A DNA stretch of 64,000 nucleotides from Patescibacteria group bacterium (GCA_023474215.1 JAMCYI010000011.1:16739-80738); one strand, 5' to 3'; shown: positions 3,154-61,986, counted from the stretch's first letter. A program made the numbers and translations. Notes: a model not told the origin generated them from the letters alone.

Positions 3154-3234
3154 TTCCTTTATTATAGCAAATCGATACGCCGAGAAACATGAAACCCCAT
3201 GAGGTAGATACACACTCATGGGGTTTGCTTGTTG

Positions 3235-4539
3235 CTAGTGAACGAGATAGACCGGCGACTGGCTCGCGGTCACGGTGCATTGCCCGTTTTGAACGGTTAC
3301 GGTTTGGCTGCTCCCGGTAAGCGTCGTGAGCGTTGCGCTTGATCCCGCGATGTTCCCGACCGTTACCGTCTGTGGAGTATTTGCCGTAGTCCAAATGGCA
3401 TCTATCGTCTTCTGATTCCCAGAAAAACGGTATTCGAAGATCCCGTTTCCGAAGCTATTGCTCTCGAAAGTCGCTCCACCGAGGATTCCCGTAAGAGTCT
3501 GGTAGGCATCGTAGTCCTCTTTTGAAGACAGCGCCCGATCGCGATGAACGAGACCGAAGTTATCCTCGTAAGGATCGCCCGTCCCGTCATCCCGGAAATC
3601 GTACCAAAATACCTTTTGGACTTCCGGCAGAGCGAGCAGTTGGACATATGCGCGGACCAGGTAGTCGGCTTGCTGGCTTTCTGATACGTAAGACACTCCC
3701 GTCGTCCATCCTATCTCGGTAATCCATAGGGGCTTATCCGGAAACAAGTCGTGGAAACCGGCGATCTGTCCGACGAGCATGCTGGGATAGGTGGTGTCGC
3801 CGCGCACCGTGATATCGGGTGCCACGCCGGGATACAAATCGACCGCAAGGATATCGAAATAGCTCGACCCGCCTGCGGCGTATACCTGGCTCACAAAAGA
3901 TGTGTCGGTTCCGACAACGCCTCCCATAAGAATATGGCTTTCCGGCGCAACGCTCATGATTGCTTCGTAACTTGCCCTCAAGAGCCGTACATAATCGTTC
4001 GCGTTGGGGGTTGGATGCCAGAACATCGAGAAATCTTCTTCGCTCCAGATTTCCCAGTAGTGAATCTGGTTTTTGTACCGACCCACAACTGTTTCCACAT
4101 AGCTGCTCCATTCAGCGAGCATGGTATCGGTCAAGGAAGACATATCCTTGTGATTGTTGGCTGCGCCCCACCATGACGCTCCATAGCAGAGCATCCCCAA
4201 CACGTTGATCTTCGCCTTCAGTTCCCCATTTACCGCCTTGTCGAACGGTGACCAATTGAATTGGTTCTTCTTCGGCTCGAGAACCGTCCACTCGAAAGAT
4301 TCCCGCTGCCATCGAATTCCGGCATCTGCCATCTTCGCGATAGCGGTACCAATGAGCGCGGTGTCGCTCCCCTGGTAACGGGTTGCAAGACAAGTAGTGG
4401 CGCCAAAAGGCCAACTTTCATATTCCGAGGCGAAGGTTGGGGAATCGGGAGGGTTCGGATTTGGATTCGGAGACGGAGCATCCGGCGGCTTGCATCCTGC
4501 AAGGGTAGCCACCAAGAGCATAAAAACTAATCGATTCAT
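3235..4539 (-). CDS. lipoprotein glycoside hydrolase (TIM-barrel, clan GH-A-like)
   Basis: Lipobox LVATLAGC followed by a PNPNPNPP linker. NQIHYWEIWSEED and LWITEIGWT motifs are typical of retaining GH-A nucleophile and acid/base regions. Confidence 0.55.
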   Translation of the reverse strand: MNRLVFMLLVATLAGCKPPDAPSPNPNPNPPDSPTFASEYESWPFGATTCLATRYQGSDTALIGTAIAKMADAGIRWQRESFEWTVLEPKKNQFNWSPFDKAVNGELKAKINVLGMLCYGASWWGAANNHKDMSSLTDTMLAEWSSYVETVVGRYKNQIHYWEIWSEEDFSMFWHPTPNANDYVRLLRASYEAIMSVAPESHILMGGVVGTDTSFVSQVYAAGGSSYFDILAVDLYPGVAPDITVRGDTTYPSMLVGQIAGFHDLFPDKPLWITEIGWTTGVSYVSESQQADYLVRAYVQLLALPEVQKVFWYDFRDDGTGDPYEDNFGLVHRDRALSSKEDYDAYQTLTGILGGATFESNSFGNGIFEYRFSGNQKTIDAIWTTANTPQTVTVGNIAGSSATLTTLTGSSQTVTVQNGQCTVTASQSPVYLVH

Positions 4540-6216: not shown

Positions 6217-8475
6217 TTAGTGCAGTAATCCTCGCACTTTTACGTAGTAGGTGGTGTTGGCGTTAAGATTGGTTATGGGCTGCACGTAAGTGCCTGTCGC
6301 CGTAGAGTTTAGCACGTTGAGAGTATTCCATATCGACGGATTACTTGAAGTTGCATAGAGCACTTGGTCGTCTTTTGCATAGCTCTGCGGATTGGTCCAC
6401 TGCACCGTGAAGCTGTTCGATGTCACGCTTCCCGGCTGAATGGTGACGTTCGTCGGCCACGTGTTCGATGCCACAGGAGTGGTGGACGACGTCTGTACGC
6501 AGTAAAGCCCGTTTTGCGGATCGCTCACGTGGCTCGGATCGCAGAAAGAAATTTGCCCTATGACGTTCGCGGGAGTCGTCGCTCCCGAAAACGTGCCGGA
6601 AGCGAGAGCAAGCGATACGCCGGAAAGATTGACGTAGCCGTCAGCCGATCCAAGCGAGGGATCGGAAGTCAAAAATCTTGCATAGCCGGAAAGGGCGCCC
6701 GTACTCATGTTCACCGTCGGAAGATTGAAGCCCGGATACGTCGGATCCATGTCCCCTTCGTTGAACGAGAGCCAGCCGTAGCCGCAGCTCGGACGCGTGT
6801 CGCCTGAGAGGCATGAATTGCCGCTCCATGCATATCCCATTAGCCTCCCGGTATCGGGATTCAGGTAAACGCCGTAAGAAATCGGGCTCGTGCCGCTCAA
6901 GTTCGGCGAAACGGTATCGGAACTGAACTTCACCCAGCCGACGGCATTTGCCGCCGATGAGGGGATTGTGGAGCTGCCGGCCCACGCCCAGCCCTTCACG
7001 GGCGACATTTTGCTCAAATCGAGCGTTATCGAAGACCGGGGAACGATGATGACCGGCGTTGCATCGCCCGGGTTCAATTGATAGCTCGTTATACGGTACT
7101 GAACCGTCTGGCCGATGGTTGGCGAATCGATGTAGCAGTTGAGGGACTGAGCACCGGGACACTGCACGGTGAGTAATTGCCATGTCTGGCCGTTATCGGT
7201 GCTCTTTTGCGGATTGAACGATTGGAACTGGCCGGCCGAACTCCACAAGACCGGCACCGTGACGGTATTGTTCGAATTCACGTTTTGCACGACGGCCCGG
7301 AAGTTGCCGATCACATAGGCAGTTGTGATCGAGGTTTGTCCCGCAAATGAGCAGCCGTTCATGCTGCACGCCGATATGGAGTACGTGTAACCGGTCCCGT
7401 AGCTTGCCTGGTTATCCGTGAAACTCCTTGCGCTGCCGGAAACTGTTGCTAAAGGAACAAAACTTCCTTGGCCCGTTGCACGCTGCAAGACAAAGTGATC
7501 CACGTAGCTCGAGGGGCTCGCATCGCTCCACGTGAGCTTCACGGCAACCTGGCCCTGGTCGGGATGAAGGCCCGTACCGGTCGTCGTCGCGGAAAGTCCC
7601 GTCGGCGTGCGCGGTACGATGACGGTCGATACGCCGGACGCAATGGTCACCTGGTTCGAATCTTTCACCGTCACGCTGTTTCCGGAAACCGTATCGTCGG
7701 AAAACGGATGACAGTACAAATCCGTTTGGTAGTAGTTGATCGAGTAAATGCTGTCGCCGTTGAAAGAAACATTGCTGTCGGGAACGATGAGCGAGCCGCC
7801 GCTGAATATGCTGGATGCGCTGTATCTCGTGAGCCCCCATTGATTGGGGCCGCTTTTGCTGATCATGATGCCGAAGGTCTTGAGGTCCCGTCCGCCGAAT
7901 TCCGGATCGATCGGGATGTTGATACTGACCGAACTCCCGCCGGTCGTCGAAAACGTGGCGCCTTGCGGCCCGTTTTGATTGATCGACGGCAGGGCAGGCG
8001 TCGTTGCCGACGCTGAAACTTTGACGCCCGTTTGATAGCTGACCGGTTGCGATGAATCGACCGGCCATATCGAATAATTAATCTGCATATTGGGGTCGAG
8101 GCCGACGTAATTCGAGAGATTCGACGAACCCGGGGCGCACTGCTGGATATTAGTGAGGCCCGTGGCCGCCGTGCCATTCACGCTCGCTCCCAAAGCATCG
8201 TCGATGCAAACTTTCGGCGAGGTGTTTTGGGGATCATTCCCCAAATTGAACCCTTGCGAGGTATTGATGCTCCCCGATCGCGAAAACCAAAATGAAACGC
8301 TTGGTTGATTGGGGTTGCTTTGCCAGCCAAGTTCGATGGCGCAGGCCGAAACGGGAGTTGCCGTGAAATTGGAGATCGACGGCGTCGTTTGAGCTTTCAC
8401 CTCTGTGTGCAACCACAAGCCGGCCGCGAAGACGACGGCAAGGAGTATAAAAAATGAAATTTTTAACTTGCTCAT
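6217..8475 (-). CDS. large exported protein, S/T/N-rich (possible FN3-like repeats)
   Basis: ORF 6217..8499. Start at 8475 (MSKLKISFFILLAVVFAAG signal peptide) gives an ATGA stop/start overlap with the upstream gene. Last gene of a four-gene exported-protein operon. Confidence 0.5.
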   Translation of the reverse strand: MSKLKISFFILLAVVFAAGLWLHTEVKAQTTPSISNFTATPVSACAIELGWQSNPNQPSVSFWFSRSGSINTSQGFNLGNDPQNTSPKVCIDDALGASVNGTAATGLTNIQQCAPGSSNLSNYVGLDPNMQINYSIWPVDSSQPVSYQTGVKVSASATTPALPSINQNGPQGATFSTTGGSSVSINIPIDPEFGGRDLKTFGIMISKSGPNQWGLTRYSASSIFSGGSLIVPDSNVSFNGDSIYSINYYQTDLYCHPFSDDTVSGNSVTVKDSNQVTIASGVSTVIVPRTPTGLSATTTGTGLHPDQGQVAVKLTWSDASPSSYVDHFVLQRATGQGSFVPLATVSGSARSFTDNQASYGTGYTYSISACSMNGCSFAGQTSITTAYVIGNFRAVVQNVNSNNTVTVPVLWSSAGQFQSFNPQKSTDNGQTWQLLTVQCPGAQSLNCYIDSPTIGQTVQYRITSYQLNPGDATPVIIVPRSSITLDLSKMSPVKGWAWAGSSTIPSSAANAVGWVKFSSDTVSPNLSGTSPISYGVYLNPDTGRLMGYAWSGNSCLSGDTRPSCGYGWLSFNEGDMDPTYPGFNLPTVNMSTGALSGYARFLTSDPSLGSADGYVNLSGVSLALASGTFSGATTPANVIGQISFCDPSHVSDPQNGLYCVQTSSTTPVASNTWPTNVTIQPGSVTSNSFTVQWTNPQSYAKDDQVLYATSSNPSIWNTLNVLNSTATGTYVQPITNLNANTTYYVKVRGLLH

Positions 8476-9113
8476 TGTTTTACACATGTATAAACCCAAC
8501 CGTTCGGCGCATCATAATTGCTATGGGAACCCATGAAACCTTCCAATATTTTTACCATGGTATAACCAGCAGCACAGCCGTTAGCACTCGAAAATTGATT
8601 GGAGACGCCAACAGCGGAATCGTTGAAGCCGCCGTTATTGTCGCATTGACTTATTGTAGCTTGACCCGTTCCAGCGATACCGCAAACATCACCCTGCGGT
8701 GGAAGGACAAGCGACCCAACCGTTACATTACCGCTCATTTTGAAAAGTCCGCCGCTTAAAACCAAATTACCGGTCTGCCCGTCTTCATACGAAGAAAAAT
8801 GCGTTTGGCCGTTCGCGACGGAAAGCATCGACTGCTGGGGAAAATTGATGAACGTATTGCTACCAAAAGAAAGGGTTCCGGGAACTTGAAGTCCAAAAGA
8901 GTTGCCACCCAATACGCTGACCGACCCAACAGAGAAATTTCCGGTTTTTACTTGAGCCGAAGGACCTTCGTCGACGGGAATGACGCCCCCGCCGCCGGCT
9001 ACATACGGAGGAACGGTCGGTTCGATAAAGGAAGCTCTCACCAAACCGAAGTAGGCCACTTGAACCGCAAGGAAGATCGCAACGATGATCAAATAGCTCG
9101 TTTGTTTTTTCAT
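8472..9113 (-). CDS. exported protein, paralog family member (Cys-rich C-terminal domain ...CAAGY...CVKQ)
   Basis: Signal/anchor MKKQTSYLIIVAIFLAVQVAYFG. C-terminal motif is shared with the two upstream genes. Confidence 0.5.
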   Translation of the reverse strand: MKKQTSYLIIVAIFLAVQVAYFGLVRASFIEPTVPPYVAGGGGVIPVDEGPSAQVKTGNFSVGSVSVLGGNSFGLQVPGTLSFGSNTFINFPQQSMLSVANGQTHFSSYEDGQTGNLVLSGGLFKMSGNVTVGSLVLPPQGDVCGIAGTGQATISQCDNNGGFNDSAVGVSNQFSSANGCAAGYTMVKILEGFMGSHSNYDAPNGWVYTCVKQ

Positions 9114-9117
9114 AATT

Positions 9118-10047
9118 TTATGTTTTCACGCAAACATGGATATCGTTAGTGCCACCGTCGATCACATACTTACCGAAGTCGACACGCTGGTATCCGGCGG
9201 GGCAGCTTTGATAAGCACCGTTGGGGTTATAGCCGCCGCAATCGTAGACCAAGTGGTCGGTATAGAGCCCGCACCATTCACCCTTAATCGGGAAATCGTT
9301 TTTGTTCACCATGACCGTACCCGCCTGAATGTTCACTCCCCCACCCATCGGCTGATAGACGAGCTCCGCATAATTATCATATTGAATTATCTGACCGATC
9401 ACTCTGCCGTACTGATCAACGCAATTTCCGCTTCCATCGGAACTGGCCCCCGAACCGTAGAGAGTTTGGCAATCCAAAAATATTTTTTCATAATCATACC
9501 CGTAACTTCCTATCGGCGGAGGCGTCGATTGACCCTTGTATGGAGCATTCACGGCACCGCTGCAATCGATGTTGTCGGTCGTGTCACAAGAAAGTATCTC
9601 GGACTGCTGCGCCGCCGTCATGGAAGAGGTCGATACGTACACCCCATCCTCTTGCCAAACACCGAAACCGGAGATCGCTTGGCTTATCAAGGTACTCACG
9701 CTGCCGTCGGTCCCAATGGTAAACCCAATGTCTTGTCCGGTCACCGGCGCCGGGAAGAAAACGTTCAATTCGTTGTTCCCGAAACCTATCCGATTGCTCC
9801 CGCCGTTCGGGGCACAGCCTTGATTGCCGTTGCCGCTGAATATGATGCATCCCCCGTTCGCCTTGAAGGTGACGCTGTCTTGGGGCGTCTGGAAGGAAGA
9901 TTGGCTCATCGATAGATCGCCTGATTTCGTTTGTCCCGAAGAATTGGTCGTAACGGGCATCGGCGATTGCTGCGCGCTCGCCAAAAGAGTCGCCCCCTCA
10001 ACGAGAATGATGGCGATAAAGAGTGCGATGAGCGATTTTTGTTTCAT
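9118..10047 (-). CDS. exported protein, paralog family member (C-terminal WCG...CPAGY...CVKT domain)
   Basis: ORF 9118..10275 trimmed to the Met at 10047 (MKQKSLIALFIAIILVEGATLLASAQ signal peptide). The longer ORF would overlap the upstream gene by about 200 nt. Confidence 0.5.
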   Translation of the reverse strand: MKQKSLIALFIAIILVEGATLLASAQQSPMPVTTNSSGQTKSGDLSMSQSSFQTPQDSVTFKANGGCIIFSGNGNQGCAPNGGSNRIGFGNNELNVFFPAPVTGQDIGFTIGTDGSVSTLISQAISGFGVWQEDGVYVSTSSMTAAQQSEILSCDTTDNIDCSGAVNAPYKGQSTPPPIGSYGYDYEKIFLDCQTLYGSGASSDGSGNCVDQYGRVIGQIIQYDNYAELVYQPMGGGVNIQAGTVMVNKNDFPIKGEWCGLYTDHLVYDCGGYNPNGAYQSCPAGYQRVDFGKYVIDGGTNDIHVCVKT

Positions 10048-14520: not shown

Positions 14521-14633
14521 GGGAAGGTTGCGTTCAATTTAACTTTATCAGATTTGCAAGGAAATAGGAACGGAAGTTTTCCCGACCCATTTCCCGAGTT
14601 CGATTCTCACTGACATTAAGGAATATAGAAGAC

Positions 14634-14683
14634 CCACTACAAGAGTGGGCTTTGTATTTTGTGCGGCCAGGGAGAATCGGCTT
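14634..14683 (-). repeat. about 50-bp direct repeat copy 1 (hairpin cccact/agtggg plus the tRNA-Gly 3'-terminal 18 nt); the second copy is 14812..14861
   Basis: acccactacaagagtgggctttgtattttgtgcggccagggagaatcg occurs twice. The second copy overlaps the 3' end of the intact tRNA-Gly. Confidence 0.8.
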
Positions 14684-14811
14684 CGCCTCTCGCTGCGCTC
14701 GGGCTAGCCACCGCCTCGCGTCCCTCGACAAGCTCGGGGCATGCTCCGGCGTTCGATTCCCCACGTGAGCCAAGCAGTTAGCTCACTCTGGCCAGGCATA
14801 GAAAATACAAA
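14684..14811 (-). repeat. tRNA-attached GC-rich element, copy A (T-type family)
   Basis: Reverse complement contains the conserved core GGGGAATCGAACGCCGGAGCATGCCCCGAGCTTGTCGAGGGACGCGAGGCGGTGGCTAGCCCGAGCGCAGCGAGAGGCGAAG. It lies between tRNA-Gly and the duplicated tRNA-Gly 3' end. Confidence 0.7.
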
Positions 14812-14841
14812 ACCCACTACAAGAGTGGGCTTTGTATTTTG

Positions 14842-17994: not shown

Positions 17995-17996
17995 CA

Positions 17997-18136
17997 GGAG
18001 CGCATGCACGTGAACCGCTTCACGTGCATGAAGATTCGAACGCCGGAGCGTGTCCCGAGCTTGTCGAGGGACGCGAGGCGGTGCCCAGCCCGAGGCGCAA
18101 AGCCGAGAGGCGAGGGAGAATCCTTCCGCCTCCGCA
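17997..18136 (+). repeat. tRNA-attached GC-rich element, copy B (T-type), ending in an 18-nt duplicate of the tRNA-Ser 3' end
   Basis: 12-bp palindromic hairpin catgcacgtgaa-ccgc-ttcacgtgcatg. Conserved core AAGATTCGAACGCCGGAGCGTGTCCCGAGCTTGTCGAGGGACGCGAGGCGGTGCCCAGCCCGAGGCGCAAAGCCGAGAGGCGAGGGAG. Then aatccttccgcctccgca at 18119..18136, identical to the tRNA-Ser 3' terminus. Confidence 0.75.
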
Positions 18137-18788: not shown

Positions 18789-18937
18789 CAATAAAGTAAA
18801 TTGAGAAGCGCGCAAACTGCTTTGCGCGCGTTTGGAATCGAACGCCGGAGCATGTCCCGACCTCGCCGAGGGACGCGAGGCGGTGCCCAGCCCGAGGCGC
18901 GAGCCGAGAGGCGAGGGAGATTCCTCTCGAGGGCACA
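18789..18937 (+). repeat. tRNA-attached GC-rich element, copy C (T-type), ending in an 18-nt duplicate of the tRNA-Arg 3' end
   Basis: Hairpin gcgcgcaaa-ctgc-tttgcgcgc. Core GGAATCGAACGCCGGAGCATGTCCCGACCTCGCCGAGGGACGCGAGGCGGTGCCCAGCCCGAGGCGCGAGCCGAGAGGCGAGGGAG. Then attcctctcgagggcaca at 18920..18937, which equals the tRNA-Arg 3' end. Confidence 0.75.
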
Positions 18938-26604: not shown

Positions 26605-27258
26605 ATGAAAATAAAACTTATACTTTTCGACATAGACAATACCCTCATATACGGCGAATCCGCTTCCCGGTATTATCGGCAATATTCCCCGCTCCTTGAG
26701 AAAACTCTCGCTTCTTGTCTCGGCATTTCCGTTCCTGAAGCAAAACGAATAGCCGACGAGCACCGGCGGATGTTTCATGGGCGTGGAGAAAAATCATTTG
26801 AGACCTACGGCGTCGGCTTGTCGGAATGGTACGAGTCAATATGCAGCTTAGACCCCCGTCCATTCATAGGCGAAATGCCGCGGGTTCGATCACTCCTCCG
26901 CTCTTTGAGAGAAGCGGGATACGAATTGGGAGCAATAACTGACGGTCCAATCAGCCAAGCGGACAGGATTTTGTCGTGCGCCGGCATTGACAAGAACACC
27001 TTCTCTCTCTTTACCGGCTGGATAAAAGGCAGAGCGATGCCAAAAGGAGGCGAGGAACAAATCTTCAGGAAAATCATAACTAAAAAGAAATTGAAGCCGG
27101 AGGAGATCCTCATGATCGGAGATTCCGTCAATACGGACATTCTTCCGGCACAAAAGTGCGGGATGAATATTCTCCACGTGAAAGGAAATGGCGCGAGCGA
27201 ATTTCCGAGCATATCATCAATCGAGGAATTGTTACAATATTTAAAGACATATGAATAA
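26605..27258 (+). CDS. HAD-superfamily hydrolase
   Basis: Motif I FDIDNTL. C-terminal GDSVNTDI (motif IV). Confidence 0.7.
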   Translation: MKIKLILFDIDNTLIYGESASRYYRQYSPLLEKTLASCLGISVPEAKRIADEHRRMFHGRGEKSFETYGVGLSEWYESICSLDPRPFIGEMPRVRSLLRSLREAGYELGAITDGPISQADRILSCAGIDKNTFSLFTGWIKGRAMPKGGEEQIFRKIITKKKLKPEEILMIGDSVNTDILPAQKCGMNILHVKGNGASEFPSISSIEELLQYLKTYE

Positions 27259-28174
27259 AAGGAAGATCAAAATACCAATCATCATCGACACCGACCCGGG
27301 GCACGACGACGCCCTCGCCATCATGCTCCTTGAAAAATCCGGTGTGGCGGATATTAAAGCCGTTACCACAGTTGCCGGAAACAGTACGATTCAGAATGTG
27401 ACCAATAATGCCCGGTACATACTCGATCTCTTGGGCGTTTCTACTCCTCTCTTTTCGGGATCTTCAAAACCGATTAAACGAAAACTAGTACAGGCCGTCG
27501 TACATGGTAAGAGCGGCCTCGATGGCGCAAAGATCAAAAAACGCGAAAAACTGACGGGTGATGCTGTGGAGAAAATCATATCGATAGTCCGAGAAAATCC
27601 CAGGGAGATTTCGATTGTTGCCATCGGCCCGGAAACCAATCTGGCAAAAGCTTTCATTCGTGATCCGAAACTTCCTTCACTCATCAAACAACTCGTGATC
27701 ATGGGCGGGGCAATTAGTGCTCCGGGAAACAAGAACAGAGTTGCTGAATTCAACGTCTTTGTTGACCCGGAAGCCGCAGACATTGTGTTCAAGACAGCAG
27801 TAAAGAAAGTATTGATACCCCTCGACGTTTGCAACGACATTGTCCTCCGAAAAACCGATTTTGAGAAGTTGAAAAAAACTCTTCTCACTGAATCCGTTTT
27901 AAGAATGATGGATAAGTACATCTACGGTTTGTCGGTCAATGAGAAAGCGAACGGTGCGTTGATGTATGATCCTCTCGCTGCTTACTACCTCATAAATCCT
28001 TCGGCATATAAACTCCAACCTATGGATATTCGGATAGAAACGGCAGGTGAGATCACAAGAGGAATGACGGTTGTGGAACGACGAACATGGGCTCAAAAGA
28101 ACCCCAATGTATTGGTAGCAACCAAAATAGATGGGGGTGTGTTCAAGAAGGATTTCTTAAGGACCCTTCAATGA
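27251..28174 (+). CDS. ribonucleoside hydrolase (inosine-uridine preferring family)
   Basis: N-terminal IIIDTDPGHDDALAIMLL aspartate cluster. Overlaps the HAD gene stop by 8 nt. Confidence 0.8.
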   Translation: MNKRKIKIPIIIDTDPGHDDALAIMLLEKSGVADIKAVTTVAGNSTIQNVTNNARYILDLLGVSTPLFSGSSKPIKRKLVQAVVHGKSGLDGAKIKKREKLTGDAVEKIISIVRENPREISIVAIGPETNLAKAFIRDPKLPSLIKQLVIMGGAISAPGNKNRVAEFNVFVDPEAADIVFKTAVKKVLIPLDVCNDIVLRKTDFEKLKKTLLTESVLRMMDKYIYGLSVNEKANGALMYDPLAAYYLINPSAYKLQPMDIRIETAGEITRGMTVVERRTWAQKNPNVLVATKIDGGVFKKDFLRTLQ

Positions 28175-28191
28175 TCCTCCGAACGGATGCG
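28164..28191 (+). repeat. 28-bp exact direct repeat, copy 1 (copy 2 at 31205..31232)
   Basis: cccttcaatgatcctccgaacggatgcg is identical at both sites. It overlaps the stop codon of the nucleoside hydrolase here, and the last codons of dus at the other site. Confidence 0.85.
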
Positions 28192-28246
28192 CTTTGCGCC
28201 CGCTTTCTCCGTTCTCGCTGCAGCGAGGTGGGATATCCAGGAAAAG

Positions 28247-28285
28247 CACCATAAAAATAACGCGGGGGTTGATCCCGCGTTATTT
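28247..28285. terminator. bidirectional Rho-independent terminator
   Basis: aaaaataacgcggg-ggttgat-cccgcgttattttt, with A-run and T-run on either side. Confidence 0.65.
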
Positions 28286-28311
28286 TTCAGAATCGATTCT
28301 TTCTACCCTTT

Positions 28312-28623
28312 CTACTCGGCGCCGTTAAACTCGTGATTGACGTTTATGCCGTTTGGATCTTGGTGACCAATGCCGGGCACGTCTTTCTCTTTCACTTCAC
28401 CGTTTACCGACCCTTTCTCTCCTTCAATATTCGCCGATTCTTGGGTGGGTTGCCCCTCGCTAACCCCGAGGTTCGCTTGACTGCTCGTCTTTTCTATAAC
28501 CGGCGATTGATTCGCGTTTACCGACGAAGTTTGGGCGAATGACTGAGCCGCTATTGAACCGAGCGATCCCAAACCGGCAAGGGCGACGGCGAGGAGGAGG
28601 GCTGTTTTTTTATTGAATTTCAT
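28312..28623 (-). CDS. small exported hypothetical protein
   Basis: Trimmed to MKFNKKTALLLAVALAGLGSLGSIAAQSFA signal peptide inside ORF 28312..28725. Confidence 0.35.
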   Translation of the reverse strand: MKFNKKTALLLAVALAGLGSLGSIAAQSFAQTSSVNANQSPVIEKTSSQANLGVSEGQPTQESANIEGEKGSVNGEVKEKDVPGIGHQDPNGINVNHEFNGAE

Positions 28624-28714
28624 ACCATAAAACTGATAGTTCTGACATCTCACGCCGACCTTTATATCATGAGATGGTATCAGTTTAACCGACCATTGAT
28701 GAAATCTTTGTGAA

Positions 28715-29737
28715 TCACGTCTCATCCATCAAAGGAAGGGTGATGGTCACAATCGTTCCCTTACCTACTTCGCTTTCTAAAGCAATCGCACCTCCGCATT
28801 TCTCAATAATCTCTCGAGTTATGGAGAGACCCAGGCCGGCTCCCTCCCTCTCGGAATGCGACTCATCAACTCTAAAAAATGGATCAAAGACGCGGGAAAG
28901 CTGCTCGGGTGGTATGCCAATACCGGAATCTTTTACTATCACTTTTCCAACTGCATGCTCCTTCAGGAGAGTAACGGCGACACTTCCGCCGTTTGGCGTA
29001 TATTGAATAGCATTGTGGATGATGTTCGACAACGCCCGCTCAAAGGAAATGGCATCGCCCATGACGAAAATTTCATTGTCCGCGTTTTCATTGACCGCAA
29101 GGGCAATGTGTTTCGCTCGAGCAAGTGGTAATAACTTTTTTACAACCCCCAAAGAACTCTCCGTCACCGAAAAACGTGCCGCGTTCACCTTTGCACCCCC
29201 ACCCTTTATCATTTCCAAGAGATTGTTTGCCAACGCGGTCAATCCATTGATTTCCTCGATGGCACTCTGCACAGTCTTTTTAACCGGCGAGGAAATTTCC
29301 GGCTGACCGCGGAGGGTCACCTCCATCTCCGTTTTCATAACCGCGAGGGGGGTACGGAGTTCATGGGCCGCATCGGCAATAAATCGCCGTTCTCGGTTTG
29401 TTGCTTTCTTGATCGGACGGAGTGTGATACTCGTAACAAAAAAGCCAAAAATGAGCACCAACGCTAGGACAACAATATCGGCAAAGATGATTCTCGCCTC
29501 GAGGGCTCCCGCCGCGTGATTCAGCGCCGCCTGCTGGATAGCATCGGTCGGGAAATCACCGTTCAGCGAGTCATTGAGTTCCTTGAAAAGAGTTCCATAG
29601 AGGAGGTAGCTGAAGATGCCAAGCATCACTGCCGCCGTTCCCACATAAACCGCGGTTAATTTAACGCGGGCAGTGAAAAATTCATCACGCCGCCATTTTG
29701 TAACCAACGCCGCGAATGGTTTGAATAATTTTCCCAT
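28715..29737 (-). CDS. sensor histidine kinase
   Basis: H-box FIADAAHELRTPL, HATPase N/G boxes (IIHNAIQYTPNGG, VKDSGIGI, GAGLGLSI), N-terminal TM helices. The start may be an internal Met (overlap with RR). Confidence 0.8.
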   Translation of the reverse strand: MGKLFKPFAALVTKWRRDEFFTARVKLTAVYVGTAAVMLGIFSYLLYGTLFKELNDSLNGDFPTDAIQQAALNHAAGALEARIIFADIVVLALVLIFGFFVTSITLRPIKKATNRERRFIADAAHELRTPLAVMKTEMEVTLRGQPEISSPVKKTVQSAIEEINGLTALANNLLEMIKGGGAKVNAARFSVTESSLGVVKKLLPLARAKHIALAVNENADNEIFVMGDAISFERALSNIIHNAIQYTPNGGSVAVTLLKEHAVGKVIVKDSGIGIPPEQLSRVFDPFFRVDESHSEREGAGLGLSITREIIEKCGGAIALESEVGKGTIVTITLPLMDET

Positions 29738-30353
29738 TGTCTTTCAATTTTTTGCGGATATTTTTTACGTGGACATCTACCGTATTGCTGAGCGATGAAT
29801 CGGCAAAATCCCAGGCATGATCGTACAGATCATCCCGCGTGATAACTTGGTTCTTGTTTCTCATGAGATACTCAAGTACCATAAATTCCTTCAGCGTGAG
29901 CGCAATTTCTCTCCCTGAAGAGTGCACGCGACGGGTCTGGGGATCAAGGGTGATGTTGCCGGCAGTAAGAAGCATATGCGGTTTACCTTGTGGTCTCCGG
30001 AGAAGCGCACGGACTCTCGCTACAAGCTCATCAAACGAGAAGGGTTTGGCTAGATAATCATCGGCACCTGCATTCAATCCGGAAACCTTGTCGCCAGTAG
30101 CATCGCGCGCAGTAAGCATTAGGATGGGCGTTGTAATGCCTTCGCCGCGCCACGCGCGACAAACCGCGACTCCATCCTTGCCGGGGAGCATCAAATCAAG
30201 CACGATCGTATCATAACTGTCGCGGTTCACCAACACCCTCCTTTCAGCGATCAGTCCGTCAAAAAGACAATCGACCGCGAAGCCTTCCTGCTCGAGGCCA
30301 ATCCGAAGACTCCTCGCGAGTTTTTCATTATCTTCAACAATCAATATTTTCAT
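29685..30353 (-). CDS. response regulator, OmpR/PhoB family
   Basis: Receiver MKILIVEDNEKL...DLMLPGKDG, winged-helix C-terminus (RVDVHVKNIRKKL...IQTIRGVGY). Confidence 0.85.
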   Translation of the reverse strand: MKILIVEDNEKLARSLRIGLEQEGFAVDCLFDGLIAERRVLVNRDSYDTIVLDLMLPGKDGVAVCRAWRGEGITTPILMLTARDATGDKVSGLNAGADDYLAKPFSFDELVARVRALLRRPQGKPHMLLTAGNITLDPQTRRVHSSGREIALTLKEFMVLEYLMRNKNQVITRDDLYDHAWDFADSSLSNTVDVHVKNIRKKLKDNGKIIQTIRGVGYKMAA

Positions 30354-30401
30354 CTCTTTGTACCCTTCTCCATTATAGGTGAAAGTTTTATGAAGCAGTA
30401 T

Positions 30402-31154
30402 CTACAGCTTCCGGGCAAGGAAGTAAACGCTCGGCCCAAAAAAGAACTTAGCGAGCGGCCTTTGAAAATGGTTTTCCATAAGCAATAAAAGTGAAAGAGG
30501 TATTGCCTTCTTCATAAGCGGCGAACGGAAATTCGAAACGCTCAGCGTTGTTTCAATTATGAAGTCATTCCATTCGAGGAGAGAGGCAATGGTACGAGGA
30601 TGGTGATTGACGAAAGGAATATCATCATATGATGAATGGTCGACTGATTCGCGGGACAAGAGATTCCAAAAAAGAGAGGGGGCGTACAAGAGCGCCATAA
30701 GGGCGCGAAGGCGGTTTTTAAAGTGTACCTTGTTGGGAATTTCTAAGATAAGGTATCCGCCCGGCTTCACGACGCGTGAAATTTCAGCTATTGTCTTCCG
30801 CGGATTGTCTATATAGTGAAACATTCTGACGCAGAGGGCGGCATCGCATGAGCCGTTTGGAAGAGGCATATCCCACGAGGAGGCAATAAGGAAACGCACG
30901 TTCTTTCCCTCGGTTACTCTTTCTCTCGCGGCAATCAGTTGTTCTTTTGAAGAATCAAGCAGGATAAATTTTTTCCAATCGTTCTCATAAAGAGAAACCA
31001 TGCGTCCATTGCCAGCCCCGATATCGAGGAGAAGGCCTTTCTGGGACGGCATTGCGGAAAAAAGCTTTTTCACTGCCATGAAATCGGCCTCTTTTTCGTA
31101 GTCGCGGCCGCGCCAAAACTCATCATAGCGATAGTCATCGTACGCAGATGGCAT
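30402..31154 (-). CDS. class I SAM-dependent methyltransferase
   Basis: LLDIGAGNGRM motif I, LLDSS motif II, VKPGGYLILE. Confidence 0.65.
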   Translation of the reverse strand: MPSAYDDYRYDEFWRGRDYEKEADFMAVKKLFSAMPSQKGLLLDIGAGNGRMVSLYENDWKKFILLDSSKEQLIAARERVTEGKNVRFLIASSWDMPLPNGSCDAALCVRMFHYIDNPRKTIAEISRVVKPGGYLILEIPNKVHFKNRLRALMALLYAPSLFWNLLSRESVDHSSYDDIPFVNHHPRTIASLLEWNDFIIETTLSVSNFRSPLMKKAIPLSLLLLMENHFQRPLAKFFFGPSVYFLARKL

Positions 31155-31198
31155 CCTAAAAACATACCAAGAATTTATGAAGATAGCATGAAAGCGTT

Positions 31199-32215
31199 TT
31201 ACCGCCCTTCAATGATCCTCCGAACGGATGCGGCATCTTCCGCTTCCATGAGCTTTATGCGCAATTCTTTCGCGTCGTCGAAACCGGAAACATATGCCTT
31301 GAAATGCTTTTTCATGACCTCGAAATTCTTGATGCGAGCTTCCGTGTTGCTCTTGTAGAGTTTCTCGAAAAGTTCCGTGTGCGTTACTAATCTTTCCAGC
31401 TTCTCGCGGAGATCGGGCACGCGGCCCGAGAAAAACCATGGATTTCCGAAAACGCCGCGCCCCACCATGACGCCATCGAGGCCGGTTTCTTTCGCGCGCC
31501 GCTTCGCTTCGTCGAGCGATGAAATATCGCCGTTCCCCAAGAGGAGCGTCCGAGGCGCGATCTGATTTCTCATTTCCACTATCTTTGGCGCCAAGTCCCA
31601 GTGCGCCGGAACTTTCGACATTTCATTCCGCGTCCGGAAGTGGATAGTAAGCGCGGCAATATGTTCTTTAAGAAGCGCCGGCATCCAGGTTTCGATCTCG
31701 TTTTTCCGGTATCCGATGCGCGTTTTAACCGAGACCGGAAGTTTCCCCGCGCCGCGCTTTGCGGCCCGGATAATTTCCTTTGCGAGTGCGGGGTTCTTCA
31801 TGAGCGCGGCTCCCCCGCCGGATTTTTCAACACTCTTGTCGGGACACCCCATGTTGATGTCGATGCCGTCGAATCCGAGTTTTTGTATCAATGCTCCTAT
31901 TCGCTCAAATTGTTCCGGCTTGCCGCCGAAGAGCTGCGCGACAATCGGGTACTCTCGCTTGTCGTACCAAAGGTCAGGCAAGAGTTTTTGGCGCCCTTTC
32001 GAGAGGAGCCCTTCAACCGAAACGAATTCCGTCCAGAAAACGTCGGGCTTTTTGATTTCCACGAACATCCGCCGGAACGCGGCGTCCGTCACGTTCGCCA
32101 TGGGCGCCATCGCCATGATCGGTTTTTTGAGCTTTGCCCAAAACCCGAGGTTCGGTTCAGTGTCTCGCTTCATATATATGAAGACAGCGTACCATTTCTG
32201 ATACGCTGAGTTCAA
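31199..32215 (-). CDS. dus: tRNA-dihydrouridine synthase
   Basis: MAPMANVTDAAFR, GFDGIDINMGCPDK catalytic Cys motif, TIM-barrel FMN pattern. The start may be the internal Met MKRDTEP. Confidence 0.8.
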   Translation of the reverse strand: MNSAYQKWYAVFIYMKRDTEPNLGFWAKLKKPIMAMAPMANVTDAAFRRMFVEIKKPDVFWTEFVSVEGLLSKGRQKLLPDLWYDKREYPIVAQLFGGKPEQFERIGALIQKLGFDGIDINMGCPDKSVEKSGGGAALMKNPALAKEIIRAAKRGAGKLPVSVKTRIGYRKNEIETWMPALLKEHIAALTIHFRTRNEMSKVPAHWDLAPKIVEMRNQIAPRTLLLGNGDISSLDEAKRRAKETGLDGVMVGRGVFGNPWFFSGRVPDLREKLERLVTHTELFEKLYKSNTEARIKNFEVMKKHFKAYVSGFDDAKELRIKLMEAEDAASVRRIIEGR

Positions 32216-32319
32216 TGAGATACTACCTCACCTAGTGCTCCCTCTCGGCGTCGCGGAGAAGGATCAAGTATCCTTTCTTCCCAATCTTACCAATCTTACG
32301 AAGTCCAACTTCGTAAGAT

Positions 32320-32853
32320 TTACGATACTGCACCGACACCGGCGCGTTGTAAGAGCTTCTCCATGAACTCATCTTTGTGCTTTCGATAGGAGGTGTAGTC
32401 ATTGGGGTATTGGGCATAGAGGTCATTTTTAAAATCGGAGTATGCCCTCACTTCTTCCGGATGCGAACGCAGGTAGTCGCGCAAGGCGAGGATCTCCTGC
32501 ACCTCCGGATTGCCTTTTTCGAAAACATGAACGTTCGACAGGAGAACGTGGTCCTTCATCCGACGGAAGAGATGAGAATCGGACACCACGTACTCCGGCA
32601 GATGTTCATAGCCAAGACGCTTCATTTCCGCCGTATGCCGGTCGGCGGATGTAAGGTCGTCGACCACAATCAAAATATCAATCGTCGGCTTCCCGCTCAT
32701 GCCCGGCACCGAGGTGCTTCCGACGTGCTCAATGGCGAGAACATCACTCCCGAAGATTTTCTTTAATTCTTCCGCCTCTGCCGCAAATCGCTTCGGCCAC
32801 TCCGGGTTGTACGGCCCCACACTGTACCTGCGATTTTGATATTCTGCGTTCAT
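32320..32853 (-). CDS. GrpB-family protein (nucleotidyltransferase fold)
   Basis: HVGSTSVPGMSGKPTIDILIVV pattern typical of the GrpB/UPF0157 family. Confidence 0.55.
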   Translation of the reverse strand: MNAEYQNRRYSVGPYNPEWPKRFAAEAEELKKIFGSDVLAIEHVGSTSVPGMSGKPTIDILIVVDDLTSADRHTAEMKRLGYEHLPEYVVSDSHLFRRMKDHVLLSNVHVFEKGNPEVQEILALRDYLRSHPEEVRAYSDFKNDLYAQYPNDYTSYRKHKDEFMEKLLQRAGVGAVS

Positions 32854-33299
32854 TTACCTAAATACATTCGCACTCCTTCCAGGATGCCGGATGTGAAATA
32901 CTCTGACGGATCGATCACCGCTAAGTCCAACCATTGATAGCCGGCGTGCTCGCTGCTGATCTTCAATTCCCCGCTTAAGTATTTTGCCTCAAAGAAAAGA
33001 TACAACACGTGGACGTCTTTCCCCGAACCGGTCATCGAGGCTGGGATCAAATGCCTGCCCGCGGCAACCGGCTTTTGCCGGAGCTGGAACTCAACATTTC
33101 CGATCTCTTCGGCCACTTCCCTCGCGATGATCTCGGAGAAATCTTTCCCGAACTCGTCCATATCGATCCTGCCGCCCGGCAAATCGTAGAAACCGGCATA
33201 GCTGCCGTCATCGACGGCTTTCAGCGCTAAAATCTTGCCGTCGTTCCTCTTCAGAAAGAGTTTCAGCGAAATTTGGTAGAGATCTTTTTCTTTTCCCAT
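32850..33299 (-). CDS. NUDIX hydrolase
   Basis: Nudix box GGRIDMDEFGKDFSEIIAREVAEEIG. ORF 32850..33716 trimmed to MGKEKD at 33299 because the upstream extension runs through tRNA-Ser. Confidence 0.65.
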   Translation of the reverse strand: MGKEKDLYQISLKLFLKRNDGKILALKAVDDGSYAGFYDLPGGRIDMDEFGKDFSEIIAREVAEEIGNVEFQLRQKPVAAGRHLIPASMTGSGKDVHVLYLFFEAKYLSGELKISSEHAGYQWLDLAVIDPSEYFTSGILEGVRMYLGK

Positions 33300-33305
33300 A
33301 CGAGG

Positions 33306-33820: not shown

Positions 33821-33858
33821 AGAGTTGATTATAGCAGATAAAGATGAATAATTGAGTT

Positions 33859-34476
33859 ATGCTGAAAATCTACCTCGCGCGGCATGGGCAGGATAAAGAC
33901 AATGCCGCGGGCATCTTGAACGGCCGAAGAGACGAATTATTGACCGAACTTGGCTGGGAGCAGGCCCGGACGCTTGCAGCGGAAATCAAAAGTGCCAATC
34001 TTTCATTTGATGCGGTTTATACCTCTCCGCTCAAGCGTGCGGAGACGACTGCCCGGACCGTGACCGACGCACTCGGCGTCGCGCCGCCCATTGTTATGCC
34101 AAATCTCATCGAGCGGAACTTTGGAATCATGACGGGGAAACTTGTAAAAGATATTGCGGCACTTTGCGCACCAAATATTATCCAAGCCGATATCATCACC
34201 TACTTCCTCTCGCCCAAGGGGGCGGAAACATTCCCCGATCTCATCGAGCGAGGAAAGAAAGTAATTGAGGAGGTGCAACACCGGCACAAGGATGGGAACA
34301 TTCTCCTTGTTGGTCACGGCGACATGGGAAAAATGATCTATGCCGCCTACTATCATTTGGATTGGCGGTCGGTTCTCACGATGTTCCATTTCGGCAATTC
34401 GGAACTGCTCCTCCTTTCGGAGGATTCACCATCCGATGCCGCGCACGTTTTTACATTTAAGCAATTCAATCACTAA
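33859..34476 (+). CDS. histidine phosphatase family protein (phosphoglycerate mutase-like)
   Basis: RHG motif LARHGQ, catalytic His in LLVGHGDM, SPLKRAETTA. Confidence 0.75.
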   Translation: MLKIYLARHGQDKDNAAGILNGRRDELLTELGWEQARTLAAEIKSANLSFDAVYTSPLKRAETTARTVTDALGVAPPIVMPNLIERNFGIMTGKLVKDIAALCAPNIIQADIITYFLSPKGAETFPDLIERGKKVIEEVQHRHKDGNILLVGHGDMGKMIYAAYYHLDWRSVLTMFHFGNSELLLLSEDSPSDAAHVFTFKQFNH

Positions 34477-34512
34477 ACAAACACCCATCATAAAGATGGA
34501 TGTTTGTATTTG

Positions 34513-35005: not shown

Positions 35006-35085
35006 GGGGCTATGGTATCACAAAGTCCATTGATATATCAAAATAGTACTTGGACGATACTATTTATTCTATACTTAAGGTATAT

Positions 35086-35718
35086 ATGAAATCCATAGAT
35101 GATGAAGTAATACAAAAAATAAAGAAGCTGCGCGCGACGGGCCACAGTATTTCAGAGATTAGTAAGGAATGTAGGATTTCTCCCGCAACAGCATCCCGCT
35201 ACATTAGAGGCGTCACTATAAAGAAACAACATCTAAAAAGATGGTTAGAGCGCCGTAATGCCAGTAAAATTATGTCCGAAAGAAACTGGGAGAAAGCCAG
35301 AGAAACCGCCGATGCCTTGGTGAATAAGCTCACAAGAAAAGAACTGTCACTTATTGGAGTTTCTCTCTACTGGGCAGAGGGCGCCAAACGGGATTTTACA
35401 TTCTCAAATACCGATCCCCGAATGGTTCGGGTTTTTATTACCATCTTGAAAGATATTTTTCAGATTTCAAACGATGACTTTAAAATATCGCTCCGCATAT
35501 ATGAGGATTTGAATAAAAAGGCTTGCCTCACCTATTGGTCGCAAATAACCGGTGTTAACCTAACAACGAGAAAAACGAGTGTAGATGTTCTCAAGGGATC
35601 CAAAAGGGGGAAACTAAAGTACGGGATGTGCCGGATTCGTGTTCGCAAAAGCGGCTTGCTTCTTAAGAAATTTTCTGCAATTATTGATAAAATAGTGGAA
35701 GAAACAAGGCCCTCGTAG
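35086..35718 (+). CDS. HTH-domain protein with I-DmoI-like (LAGLIDADG-family) endonuclease core
   Basis: N-terminal HTH (SISEISKECRISPATASRYIRG). IGVSLYWAEGAKRD closely resembles the second LAGLIDADG motif of I-DmoI (KGLYVAEGDKT). The 3' end overlaps the first 10 nt of tRNA-Arg (CCT). Confidence 0.45.
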   Translation: MKSIDDEVIQKIKKLRATGHSISEISKECRISPATASRYIRGVTIKKQHLKRWLERRNASKIMSERNWEKARETADALVNKLTRKELSLIGVSLYWAEGAKRDFTFSNTDPRMVRVFITILKDIFQISNDDFKISLRIYEDLNKKACLTYWSQITGVNLTTRKTSVDVLKGSKRGKLKYGMCRIRVRKSGLLLKKFSAIIDKIVEETRPS

Positions 35719-42685: not shown

Positions 42686-42828
42686 GGAAGGGGGATTGTT
42701 TTCGAGGAAGCTCTCGGAGCTCCGATTCGCTCGGTCCGCCGCAGAGGGGAACCGGAGCGAGAGCGCAGGGCGGCACTTGCCGCCGGAGCAAGTGAACGCC
42801 CGGTCCCGAGAAGACAATCTCCCTTCCG
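42686..42828 (-). ncRNA. structured GC-rich element, copy 1 (C-type family), closing stem plus U-run, upstream of leuS
   Basis: Outer stem ggaagggggattgttttcg / cgagaagacaatctcccttcc. Conserved internal blocks GAGGAAGCTCTCGGAG and GAGAGCGCAGGGCGGC...GGAGCAAGTGAACGCCCGGTCCCGAGAAG. On the minus strand the stem is followed by UUUUUUAUUAUU. Strand inferred. Confidence 0.55.
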
Positions 42829-42829
42829 A

Positions 42830-43501
42830 CTAAAACGTGAGGTCTTCCGGCGCGCTCACTTTTTTCCACCACGTCGCCTTCACGATCTTCACACTCTTCC
42901 CATCCCGCACCATTTGCGCCATGGTTTGCGGCAAACCGAATTCTTTCGAGCCCGGGTCCGCCTGGCGCAAGGGATAATCGAAATAGCTCATATCAAGGAC
43001 GTACGCGGCGGCGTTTTCAAGCATATCCTTTCGCGCTTCCGCTTGTTCGTCGATATCAAGCACGTTCCCCGATGCATCTGTTTTGATCTCCGCCCGATGC
43101 TCGCCCGGCGAGAAACGTTCGAGTTCGGCCGCGAGGATCGAAAGCGGGTATCGGACGAGCTCTTCAAGATCTTCTTTTGCGTACAAATCATCGCCCATCA
43201 AAACGAGAAATCGATCTTTTAAAACCGGCCGGCAAAGTCCGAGCGCGTGGCCCGTACCCTTGAGCTCTTTTTGTTCGATGTACGTTATTTTTTTGCCGGC
43301 ATATATTCCGTCAAAGGTCGCCTTAATCTGGTCGCCGAGGTATCCGATCACCATAACGACCTCCTCGACGGCGTCCGGGAGATTGTTCAACTTATATTCC
43401 AAAAGTGTTTTGTCACCGATCTTCAAAAGCGGCTTCGGCGTCCCTTTCGTGAGCTCCTTCATTCTTGTGCCGAGACCGGCCGCCAGTATGACTGCTTGCA
43501 T
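42830..43501 (-). CDS. sugar-phosphate nucleotidyltransferase
   Basis: N-terminal AVILAAGLGTRM...PKPLL signature. Confidence 0.75.
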   Translation of the reverse strand: MQAVILAAGLGTRMKELTKGTPKPLLKIGDKTLLEYKLNNLPDAVEEVVMVIGYLGDQIKATFDGIYAGKKITYIEQKELKGTGHALGLCRPVLKDRFLVLMGDDLYAKEDLEELVRYPLSILAAELERFSPGEHRAEIKTDASGNVLDIDEQAEARKDMLENAAAYVLDMSYFDYPLRQADPGSKEFGLPQTMAQMVRDGKSVKIVKATWWKKVSAPEDLTF

Positions 43502-61846: not shown

Positions 61847-61986
61847 GAAAAACCATGTTATTTTGAGGCAGCTCTCGGAGGCGAGCAAGCTTGGTTCCCC
61901 GGAAGGGATTGCGAGCCGAGAGCGCAGGGCGGCCTTGGCCGCTGGAGCCAAGGAACGTCCGGTGCCGAAAAGTAACATGGTTTTTT
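61847..61986 (-). ncRNA. structured GC-rich element, copy 2 (C-type family), closing stem plus U-run, between the H+-PPase gene and murD
   Basis: Outer stem aaaaccatgttattttg / cgaaaagtaacatggtttt. Same conserved blocks as copy 1 (GAGGCAGCTCTCGGAG; GAGAGCGCAGGGCGGCCTTGGCCGCTGGAGCCAAGGAACGTCCGGTGCCGAAAAG). Minus-strand reading ends in UUUUUCUU just before the murD RBS. Strand inferred. Confidence 0.55.

Follow-up and report, generated by a model that had tools for sequence, protein, structure and literature searches.

Insertion of a two-component signalling module into the overlap of convergent dus and nucleoside hydrolase genes very probably duplicated 28 nt in a Patescibacteria genome

The window considered here, a stretch of 64 kb of Patescibacteria DNA analysed as a whole, contains a 28-nt direct repeat whose two copies overlap the ends of two genes with no evident relationship, which raises the question of how one sequence came to serve both. 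The 28-mer (CCCTTCAATGATCCTCCGAACGGATGCG) lies on the + strand at 28164-28191 and 31205-31232, with 28/28 positions identical and a spacing of 3,041 nt that accommodates four genes. The initial annotation placed the left copy over the stop codon of the hydrolase gene and the right copy in the codons for ASVRRIIEG of the tRNA-dihydrouridine synthase (Dus) gene, and called a small exported protein, a histidine kinase, an OmpR-type regulator and a SAM methyltransferase between them, all on the minus strand. Both the placement and the gene calls are borne out, and the features of the locus are as follows.

27251-28174, + strand: inosine-uridine-preferring nucleoside hydrolase gene, intact
28143-28163, - strand: remnant of the detached Dus C-terminus, SLRNPS*, lying antisense within the 3' end of the hydrolase gene
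28143-28174, no strand assigned: position of the ancestral 32-nt tail-to-tail dus/hydrolase overlap, conserved in 5/5 empty-site relatives
28164-28191, + strand: left 28-bp copy, in which the hydrolase gene ends with (T)LQ and its TGA stop; the last 17 nt of the copy are now non-coding
28192-31204, - strand: 3,013-bp module, very probably inserted, in the order methyltransferase (MTase), response regulator (RR), histidine kinase (HK), small secreted protein, terminator
28253-28287, no strand assigned: bidirectional intrinsic terminator hairpin, with an A-run and a T-run flanking its 15-bp stem
28312-28623, - strand: small secreted protein, 103 aa counted from the conserved start
28715-29737, - strand: histidine kinase, HisKA + HATPase_c
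29685-30353, - strand: OmpR-type response regulator
30402-31154, - strand: class I SAM-dependent methyltransferase, the first gene of the insert
31199-32173, - strand: Dus gene, now ending ...IIEGR*
31205-31232, + strand: right 28-bp copy, whose minus strand encodes Dus residues ASVRRIIEG

The repeat pair itself is robust. As the initial annotation had claimed, the repeat is exact and the copies diverge immediately beyond it; identity ends abruptly on both sides and the flanks match at chance level, ruling out a longer, decayed duplication. The claim that chance is an unlikely source also holds, as roughly 3e-8 exact 28-nt pairs are expected in 64 kb and none of 100 dinucleotide-preserving shuffles yielded a match to the 28-mer. 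Chimeric joins in de Bruijn assemblies can be marked by exact short repeats, but the pair recurs with identical spacing in independent assemblies (NCBI MAG, JGI 3300017831, Logan SRR10244963) that are 100% identical over both junctions, and the left junction is also present in two ENA/JGI strain variants from other samples (99.85-99.9% identical). The repeat pair is thus not an assembly artefact, and an origin by misassembly or by coincidence is so improbable as to be negligible. Furthermore, the exact hydrolase protein occurs on eight contigs of the window species, all eight with an occupied left junction, and those contigs long enough to span this junction carry the whole module.

No third copy of the 28-mer, or of its 19-nt core, was found on either strand of the window with up to 3 mismatches, and viral contigs contained no match to the 28-mer. 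The many dispersed copies that the initial annotation associated with a REP-like repeat are consequently missing from both sets; such repeats are also usually intergenic and palindromic, and this class was rejected. A CRISPR-type array, with at least three short repeats and spacers of 25-50 nt, does not fit two copies 3,041 nt apart. A role as structured RNA or terminator was likewise dropped, as the 28-mer folds no more stably than its shuffles (z = 0.01).

The direction of the event is revealed by related genomes. Five relatives with a nucleoside hydrolase 83-90% identical to that of the window (L009, L095, L179-181, L182, L183) lack the module, and in all five the dus and hydrolase genes are convergent and overlap by 32 nt. 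The site in these genomes is colinear, without indels, with the left flank of the window, one 28-mer and the right flank. The ancestral dus and hydrolase genes shared 32 nt, which is why one sequence can serve two apparently unrelated gene ends. This ancestral overlap was missed in the initial annotation. The more distant relatives L011 and L016 have the order dus-SpoU-MTase, also without the module. Across 80 species representatives the Dus C-terminus takes the form ...(I/V)xx(F)L followed by 1-10 residues, while the Dus of the window stops at IIEGR*; the lost tail is still readable antisense beside the left copy, and the relic SLRNPS* is homologous to the FLRNLS*/FLENLS* of the relatives. 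The final Dus codons, CGG TAA (31199-31204), are derived from the insert and supply a new R-stop after ...IIEG. The hydrolase stop codon is preserved in the left copy and the Dus sequence as far as ...IIEG in the right one, at the cost of the last six Dus residues.

These comparisons bear on the options that the initial annotation had left side by side. The synteny check that it proposed gives a clear result, with the HK/RR/MTase block absent and a single 28-mer site in the five relatives, as predicted if the repeats mark the attL/attR-like boundaries of a cassette. Of that reading, the integrated block with its empty site stands; the att/integrase mechanism does not find a recombinase, symmetry or recurrence to support it. 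Gene conversion that copied the dus 3' end is unnecessary because the left copy is the original dus 3' end in situ, and inversion by recombination is impossible between direct repeats.

It is very probable that the module was inserted into the dus/hydrolase overlap with a 28-nt target duplication. The fuller account, in which a single foreign insertion of 3,013 bp and four genes produced the duplication in a one-off, recombinase-independent event, is preferred with more reserve. The target would have been the 32-nt zone in which convergent dus and hydrolase genes overlapped. By illegitimate joining or a replication template switch, the incoming DNA would have been attached at its two ends to target positions 28 nt apart (offset joints), and repair synthesis would then have copied the 28 nt onto both sides to give two direct repeats, leaving the hydrolase untouched and Dus without its last six residues. 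The repeats, the empty site, the ancestral overlap, the truncated Dus tail and the lack of mobility genes in the module are shown directly, and we infer both the joining mechanism and the foreign origin of the module. The duplication is probably the reason that the insertion survived, as it spares the hydrolase and costs Dus only its last six residues. At present the repeats probably have no function, although they may allow the module to be lost precisely. Three other indels distinguish the window from L009 (GrpB-NUDIX, His_Phos_1 and a 210-aa ORF), and their flanking repeats measure only 6-9 nt against a background of up to 11; the idea that they arose by the same mechanism as the module was rejected on this basis. 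Because these indels lack a flanking repeat above background, genes are not generally gained with a duplication in this lineage, which counts against the preferred account.

The content of the module is accounted for by its four genes, which fill the insert and leave no space for another. The Pfam domains present are HisKA/HATPase_c, Response_reg/Trans_reg_C and methyltransferase, with the one small protein domain-free; this protein is homologous to proteins of ~110 aa that follow RR-HK pairs in other Patescibacteria. The terminator hairpin came with the insert, and transcription of the hydrolase gene and of the inserted operon now ends there. The module is shown to be restricted to the window species. 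No close homologue of its genes was found anywhere, the best non-self matches being about 53% identical, compared with 83-90% for the flanking genes. For the methyltransferase and kinase, the protein database holds nothing between 53% and 100% identity, and the hydrolase has relatives at 83-90% in the same database. A donor search also found none, with the closest methyltransferase and kinase homologues again about 53% identical. The composition of the module is atypical, with a tetranucleotide distance at the 97th percentile of equal-sized windows and a GC3 of 0.52-0.57 versus 0.62-0.71 for dus, SpoU and GrpB. A phage or plasmid origin was rejected, as there is no phage match and plasmid matches reach only 66-68% over about 200 nt in the regulator domain. 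Homologous RR-HK-small-protein modules in other Patescibacteria (L089, L093, L177, L178) have no bracketing repeats, and L018 carries RR/HK genes after dus without a dus 3' repeat, which together led to rejection of a dus-targeting cassette family. The order of genes (MTase-RR-HK-small in the window, RR-HK-small-MTase in L092/L093) initially resembled a circular permutation; this clue was dropped, as order varies freely across relatives and related modules are divergent in L177, distant in L089 and absent in L175/L176.

The length and position of the repeat also invite a site-specific explanation, in which a circular, recombinase-less cassette (CIME- or IMEX-like) with a 28-bp att site identical to the dus 3' end was integrated in trans, by an integrase from another genomic locus or from a helper element, to generate attL and attR. 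The exact direct repeat lies precisely at both ends of the module, the empty site of the relatives is single-copy, and the insertion lies at the 3' end of a gene for tRNA modification, a kind of gene that integrases often target: SGI1 integrates at the trmE 3' end (PMC8409611), and dusA is a target of other islands (PMC4482086). A length of 28 bp is typical for att cores, which favours a site-specific or homology-based crossover and counts against a recombinase-independent event. The window also contains three structured elements of ~105 nt, each lying behind a tRNA gene whose last 17-19 nt are repeated after the element, and a homologue of the element is found in a Taylorbacteria genome. These tRNA-adjacent elements suggest some integration activity in the lineage, but the ends of the module show no similarity to them. 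No integrase, recombinase or transposase was found by Pfam among the genes of the insert, and precomputed Pfam annotations up to 8 kb either side, where several genes have no Pfam match, contain no recombinase domain. The absence of the 28-mer from the rest of the window and from viral contigs, the absence of flanking repeats at homologous modules elsewhere, and the lack of recurrence of the module at dus among the 80 species representatives also weigh against site-specific integration. Moreover, a site borne by the element would have to match at 28/28 nt, even at the six positions where this lineage alone carries a substitution. The 28-mer has no dyad symmetry (arm complementarity 5/11, P about 0.11 by chance) and shares only 6-9/28 identities with E. 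coli dif, so a dif/Xer site was rejected. Integration of this kind is consequently considered unlikely. A broader version, in which an uncharacterised Patescibacteria integration machinery makes target duplications of 17-30 nt and acts in trans on recombinase-less cargo, with the ~105-nt tRNA-linked elements as its small non-autonomous members, is less probable still. A transposon or insertion sequence was rejected, as there is no transposase, the module has no terminal inverted repeats (best end-to-end match 15/40 at any offset) and the duplication is 28 bp; target duplications of classical transposons are shorter, at 2-15 bp.

Homologous recombination offers a second route, either as import of the locus from a sister lineage or as one-sided, homology-facilitated illegitimate recombination anchored in dus, such that the repeat was not created in the genome of the window. 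An empty-site sister species does co-occur with the window species in one sample (ERZ27237177: L004, L181). The distribution of window-specific substitutions is also suggestive: across 2.6 kb of aligned flank they are densest at 28160-28188 (8 in 28 nt), and this cluster breaks off abruptly where the 28-mer ends on its right side. Six of them fall inside the 28-mer and are common to both copies. This pattern counts against the preferred account, as the 28-mer may have come in with the inserted DNA, or the two copies may be undergoing homogenisation. On both flanks, identity to L179 and L009 is nevertheless near-uniform at ~0.80-0.87, rising slightly, to 0.87-0.90, over the ~400 nt of dus nearest the repeat, and phylogenetic affinity is unchanged at the junction; a recombination breakpoint there was rejected on these profiles. 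None of the 80 species representatives is a donor with dus followed by the module, and import would still require the duplication to have arisen, only in a different genome. This route is judged improbable, more so than trans integration. The remaining alternative reverses the direction of the event, with the module and repeats being ancestral and the relatives having lost the module by recombination between the 28-bp repeats. Such a deletion would leave exactly the single-copy site of the relatives, and short direct repeats are known to support deletion without a recombinase (PMC5426353). The module is, however, missing from the five relatives and from more distant outgroups, its genes have no homologues of 60-99% identity anywhere in the database, its composition is atypical, and the relatives retain the family-wide, FL-containing Dus tail that is truncated only in the window. 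Ancestral presence is already largely refuted and carries very little probability.

Insertion with target duplication makes this locus an unusually legible record of gene uptake by a streamlined genome with overlapping genes, in which a 28-nt duplication uncoupled two such genes for only six Dus residues. Gene exchange is reported to be common in Patescibacteria (PMC12455944); here, the locus fixes the direction and boundaries of one such event, in which a lineage of this group acquired a two-component signalling module horizontally. If a trans-acting integrase were responsible, this would represent a mobility system not yet described in the phylum. The locus is a well-documented example of gene gain with a clean but fairly ordinary footprint, and not a new principle.

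Several known systems resemble the locus in part. Xer/dif-dependent modules (IMEX, pdif) are recombinase-less and flanked by 28-bp sites made up of two partly palindromic 11-bp arms and a 6-bp spacer, while the present 28-mer has no dif-like architecture and lies within coding sequence. Illegitimate and homology-facilitated recombination of foreign DNA in naturally transformable bacteria, reportedly described by de Vries & Wackernagel in 2002 and by Prudhomme et al. in 2002, shares the recombinase-free, one-off nature of the gain and has junctions that can delete or duplicate the target; no homologous anchor is evident here. The islands with dusA-specific integrases also target a tRNA-dihydrouridine synthase gene, but they occupy the dusA 5' end in Proteobacteria and encode their own integrase (PMC4482086). 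In contrast, the present module sits at the dus 3' end, has no integrase and resides in a Patescibacteria host. CIMEs are att-flanked and cis-mobilizable without recombination or transfer genes (PMC5704250, PMC7563491), and thus share flanking repeats and cargo with no recombinase of their own. The definition of a CIME requires att sites that a related ICE/IME at the same site recognises through its integrase; neither such an ICE/IME or integrase nor a second element with att sites was found here (64-kb window for the 28-mer, up to 8 kb either side for recombinase Pfam domains). The H47 genomic island of E. coli is similarly small, recombinase-less and flanked by direct repeats, between which host RecA-independent recombination can excise the island (PMC5426353). 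The H47 repeats are long and imperfect, with four homology blocks, and mobility was shown experimentally (PMC5426353), compared with an exact repeat of 28 nt here. The general class is that of genomic islands and islets at gene 3' ends, whose flanking direct repeats are duplicates of that end (PMC2704930). Relative to this class, the module is only 3 kb, integrase-less and known from a single occurrence, its target is a 32-nt overlap of convergent protein genes and not a tRNA gene, and the target end is imperfectly restored, with Dus lacking six residues. What it shares with these islands is the presence of direct repeats at both ends, a one-copy empty site in relatives, target gene(s) left nearly intact, and accessory cargo of atypical composition.

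The initial annotation placed an exact 28-bp direct repeat around a two-component-system block, and both copies of this 28-mer (CCCTTCAATGATCCTCCGAACGGATGCG) are confirmed on the + strand, one at the end of the hydrolase gene and one in dus. The genes listed between them are also as described:

27251-28174, + strand: inosine-uridine nucleoside hydrolase gene
28164-28191, + strand: left 28-mer copy, holding the last hydrolase codons and TGA
28253-28287: strong bidirectional terminator within the insert
between the copies, - strand: class I SAM methyltransferase, OmpR-type response regulator (RR), HisKA/HATPase_c histidine kinase (HK) and small secreted protein
31205-31232, + strand: right 28-mer copy, encoding ASVRRIIEG of Dus
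31199-32173, - strand: tRNA-dihydrouridine synthase gene (dus)

Sequence identity between the copies stops sharply at both edges of the 28-mer, in agreement with the immediate divergence reported initially. The view that chance is an unlikely origin also stands, as about 3e-8 exact pairs of 28 nt are expected and shuffles of the window gave no matches; the suggested search for further copies found none in the window on either strand with up to 3 mismatches. The structure with both 28-mers is present in a Patescibacteria MAG (GCA_023380715.1, contig JAMCRU010000001.1) and, at 100% identity, in JGI and Logan assemblies of other samples, while the left junction is also found in two strain variants (99.85-99.9% identical). 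The repeat pair is real, as the JGI and Logan assemblies and the strain variants effectively exclude an assembly artefact, to which we assign a negligible probability.

Dus relatives were searched in one genome per species and hydrolase relatives in metagenome contigs, and the contigs encoding the closest hydrolase homologues were also looked up, yielding five distinct relatives.

Table. Relatives of the window locus: contig, hydrolase identity to the window, gene coordinates
L009: 83%; dus 1644-2651, hydrolase 2620-3543
L095: 84%; no ORF coordinates, junction matches the composite without indels
L179/L180/L181: 87%; in L179, hydrolase 8001-8903, dus 8872-9804
L183: 89%; the two genes at 46-720 and 689-1789
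L182: 90%; the two genes at 24-926 and 895-1482

The HAD, hydrolase and dus genes adjoin in all five relatives, the four-gene block is absent from each, and every junction aligns indel-free to a composite of window left flank, one 28-mer and right flank, which is the single-copy arrangement that the initial annotation proposed looking for. Hydrolase and dus are convergent and overlap by exactly 32 nt (ORF coordinates of L009, L179, L182 and L183). Furthermore, a single L009 site matches both window copies by BLASTN, and L181, with its empty site, comes from the same sample as L004, a contig of the window species. We show that the insert comprises 28192-31204 (3,013 bp) and that the 28-mer pair is a target duplication.

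Across 80 species representatives, the Dus C-terminus nearly always reads ...(I/V)xx(F)L plus a tail of 1-10 residues past the last helix (IIEGFLRNLS-stop in L009, VIEGFLENLS-stop in L179). The window Dus terminates IIEGR-stop, and the lost tail is legible antisense directly left of the left copy (28143-28190, - strand: ASVRRIIEGSLRNPS-stop). The more distant L011 and L016 lack the block, and there SpoU and another methyltransferase come after dus. Hydrolase relatives in the database reach 83-90% identity; for the block methyltransferase and kinase it contains no homologue between 53% and 100%. The block is compositionally atypical, with a tetranucleotide distance at the 97th percentile and a GC3 of 0.52-0.57 versus 0.62-0.71 in adjacent backbone genes. 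Taken together, the empty sites, Dus tails, distant relatives, homologue gap and composition demonstrate gain of the block by the window lineage; ancestral presence with loss from the relatives is extremely improbable and effectively excluded.

The surroundings of dus vary in other ways. The HAD-hydrolase pair is missing between dus and SpoU in L011 and L016, and is therefore probably an earlier insertion beside dus. The two genes (26605-28174) overlap by 8 nt in the window and are fused in some relatives into single ~510-aa proteins (P0246, P0247, P0253). Window segments 32221-33304, 33840-34508 and 35006-35705, which contain GrpB and NUDIX, a His_Phos_1 phosphatase and a 210-aa ORF, are absent from L009, and repeats flanking these three segments do not rise above background. 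In L179 the slot upstream of dus is occupied by RelA_SpoT and in L183 by small ORFs together with an HTH/SocA_Panacea gene; in L009 it is empty. With these segments and this variable slot, both sides of dus are gene-turnover hot spots.

The insertion retains the native hydrolase end (...TLQ-stop) via the left copy and Dus through IIEG via the right copy, after which the insert adds CGG TAA (R, stop). The terminator now ends the hydrolase transcript on one side and the inserted genes on the other; there is none between dus and the methyltransferase, so read-through from dus into the latter is possible. In other Patescibacteria, RR-HK pairs with a homologous ~110-aa secreted protein after them recur in variable order, often near a methyltransferase of the same family, so that the insert is a coherent functional module. 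In one such genome (L093), a 53-nt direct repeat (83% identical; 2768-2820 and 3569-3621) encloses a PhdYeFM-type antitoxin region just upstream of a homologous RR-HK module.

The initial proposal of att-like boundaries holds in that there is an insertion with single-copy empty sites; recombinase, symmetry and recurrence were not found. The insert contains no recombinase and no terminal inverted repeats, and precomputed Pfam annotations show no recombinase domain within 8 kb on either side, where several genes have no Pfam hit. There is no phage match and no meaningful plasmid match, and the 28-mer lacks dyad symmetry, does not resemble dif and folds no better than shuffles. Homologous modules in other genomes are not repeat-bracketed, the dus 3' repeat is absent from L018 (the only other genome with RR/HK after dus), and the three other window-versus-L009 indels lack flanking repeats. 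Because recombinase, inverted repeats, symmetry and recurrence are all missing, we moderately favor one insertion event, illegitimate or by template switching, in which the two joints would lie 28 nt apart on the target. Such an insertion probably survived because the duplication would have uncoupled the overlapping genes cheaply. Alternatively, an integrase acting in trans could have inserted a recombinase-less circle site-specifically; this would fit the long, exact repeat and the kind of target, and we regard it as unlikely but credible.

The 28-mer itself differs at 8-10 of 28 positions between the window and each relative, and at 3-4 between relatives (pairs inspected in the junction alignment). 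The densest window-specific substitution cluster in the 2.6 kb aligned HAD-hydrolase-dus flank lies at 28160-28188 (8 substitutions in 28 nt versus a mean of 1.2). All repeat-internal changes are common to both copies, including 31205-31232, and the next 60 nt of dus carry almost no window-specific substitutions. The shared changes may predate the duplication, the copies may be undergoing homogenisation, or the 28-mer may have come with the insert. Over a wider region, the identity profile shows no hint of a recombination breakpoint. Acquisition by import from a sister lineage is doubtful, as is one-sided recombination facilitated by homology, since identity is near-uniform along both flanks.

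Two other repeated elements occur in the window. Three copies of a ~105-nt element (17996-18136, 18790-18937 and, on the minus strand, 14621-14840) lie directly 3' of tRNA-Ser(GCT), tRNA-Arg(GCG) and tRNA-Gly(GCC). All three contain a covarying 9-bp hairpin and, after it, a conserved core GGAATCGAACGCCGGAGC...GGGACGCGAGGCGGTG...GAGAGGCGAGGGAG. Behind each copy, the final 17-19 nt of the tRNA it adjoins are repeated in direct orientation; for tRNA-Gly this repeat extends to 71 nt and takes in the downstream terminator. RNAalifold predicts 40 pairs, 11 with compensatory changes, and no Rfam family matches. Copy B is absent from L009, and an nhmmer homologue follows tRNA-Gln in a Taylorbacteria contig (L028, 15826-15972, minus strand), also trailed by a tRNA 3'-end-like repeat. 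One possible reading of the ~105-nt copies is a small insertion element that targets tRNA genes, another a structured RNA. A GC-rich, apparently structured element of ~115 nt (42700-42830 and 61870-61985; 56-nt core 82% identical, each copy within its own inverted repeat) lies just upstream of minus-strand leuS and a MurD-like gene; up to E = 1, Rfam has no match for it.

The locus is a real, well-resolved insertion footprint. It differs from integrase-bearing islands in their defining feature, as it does from dusA-specific islands, which insert at the 5' end and encode an integrase of their own (PMC4482086); it is likewise distinct from transposons and Xer/dif modules. Its combination of repeats and no recombinase recalls CIMEs (PMC5704250) and the H47 island (PMC5426353), which is also recombinase-less, and the locus works in the manner of a small genomic islet bounded by att-like direct repeats.
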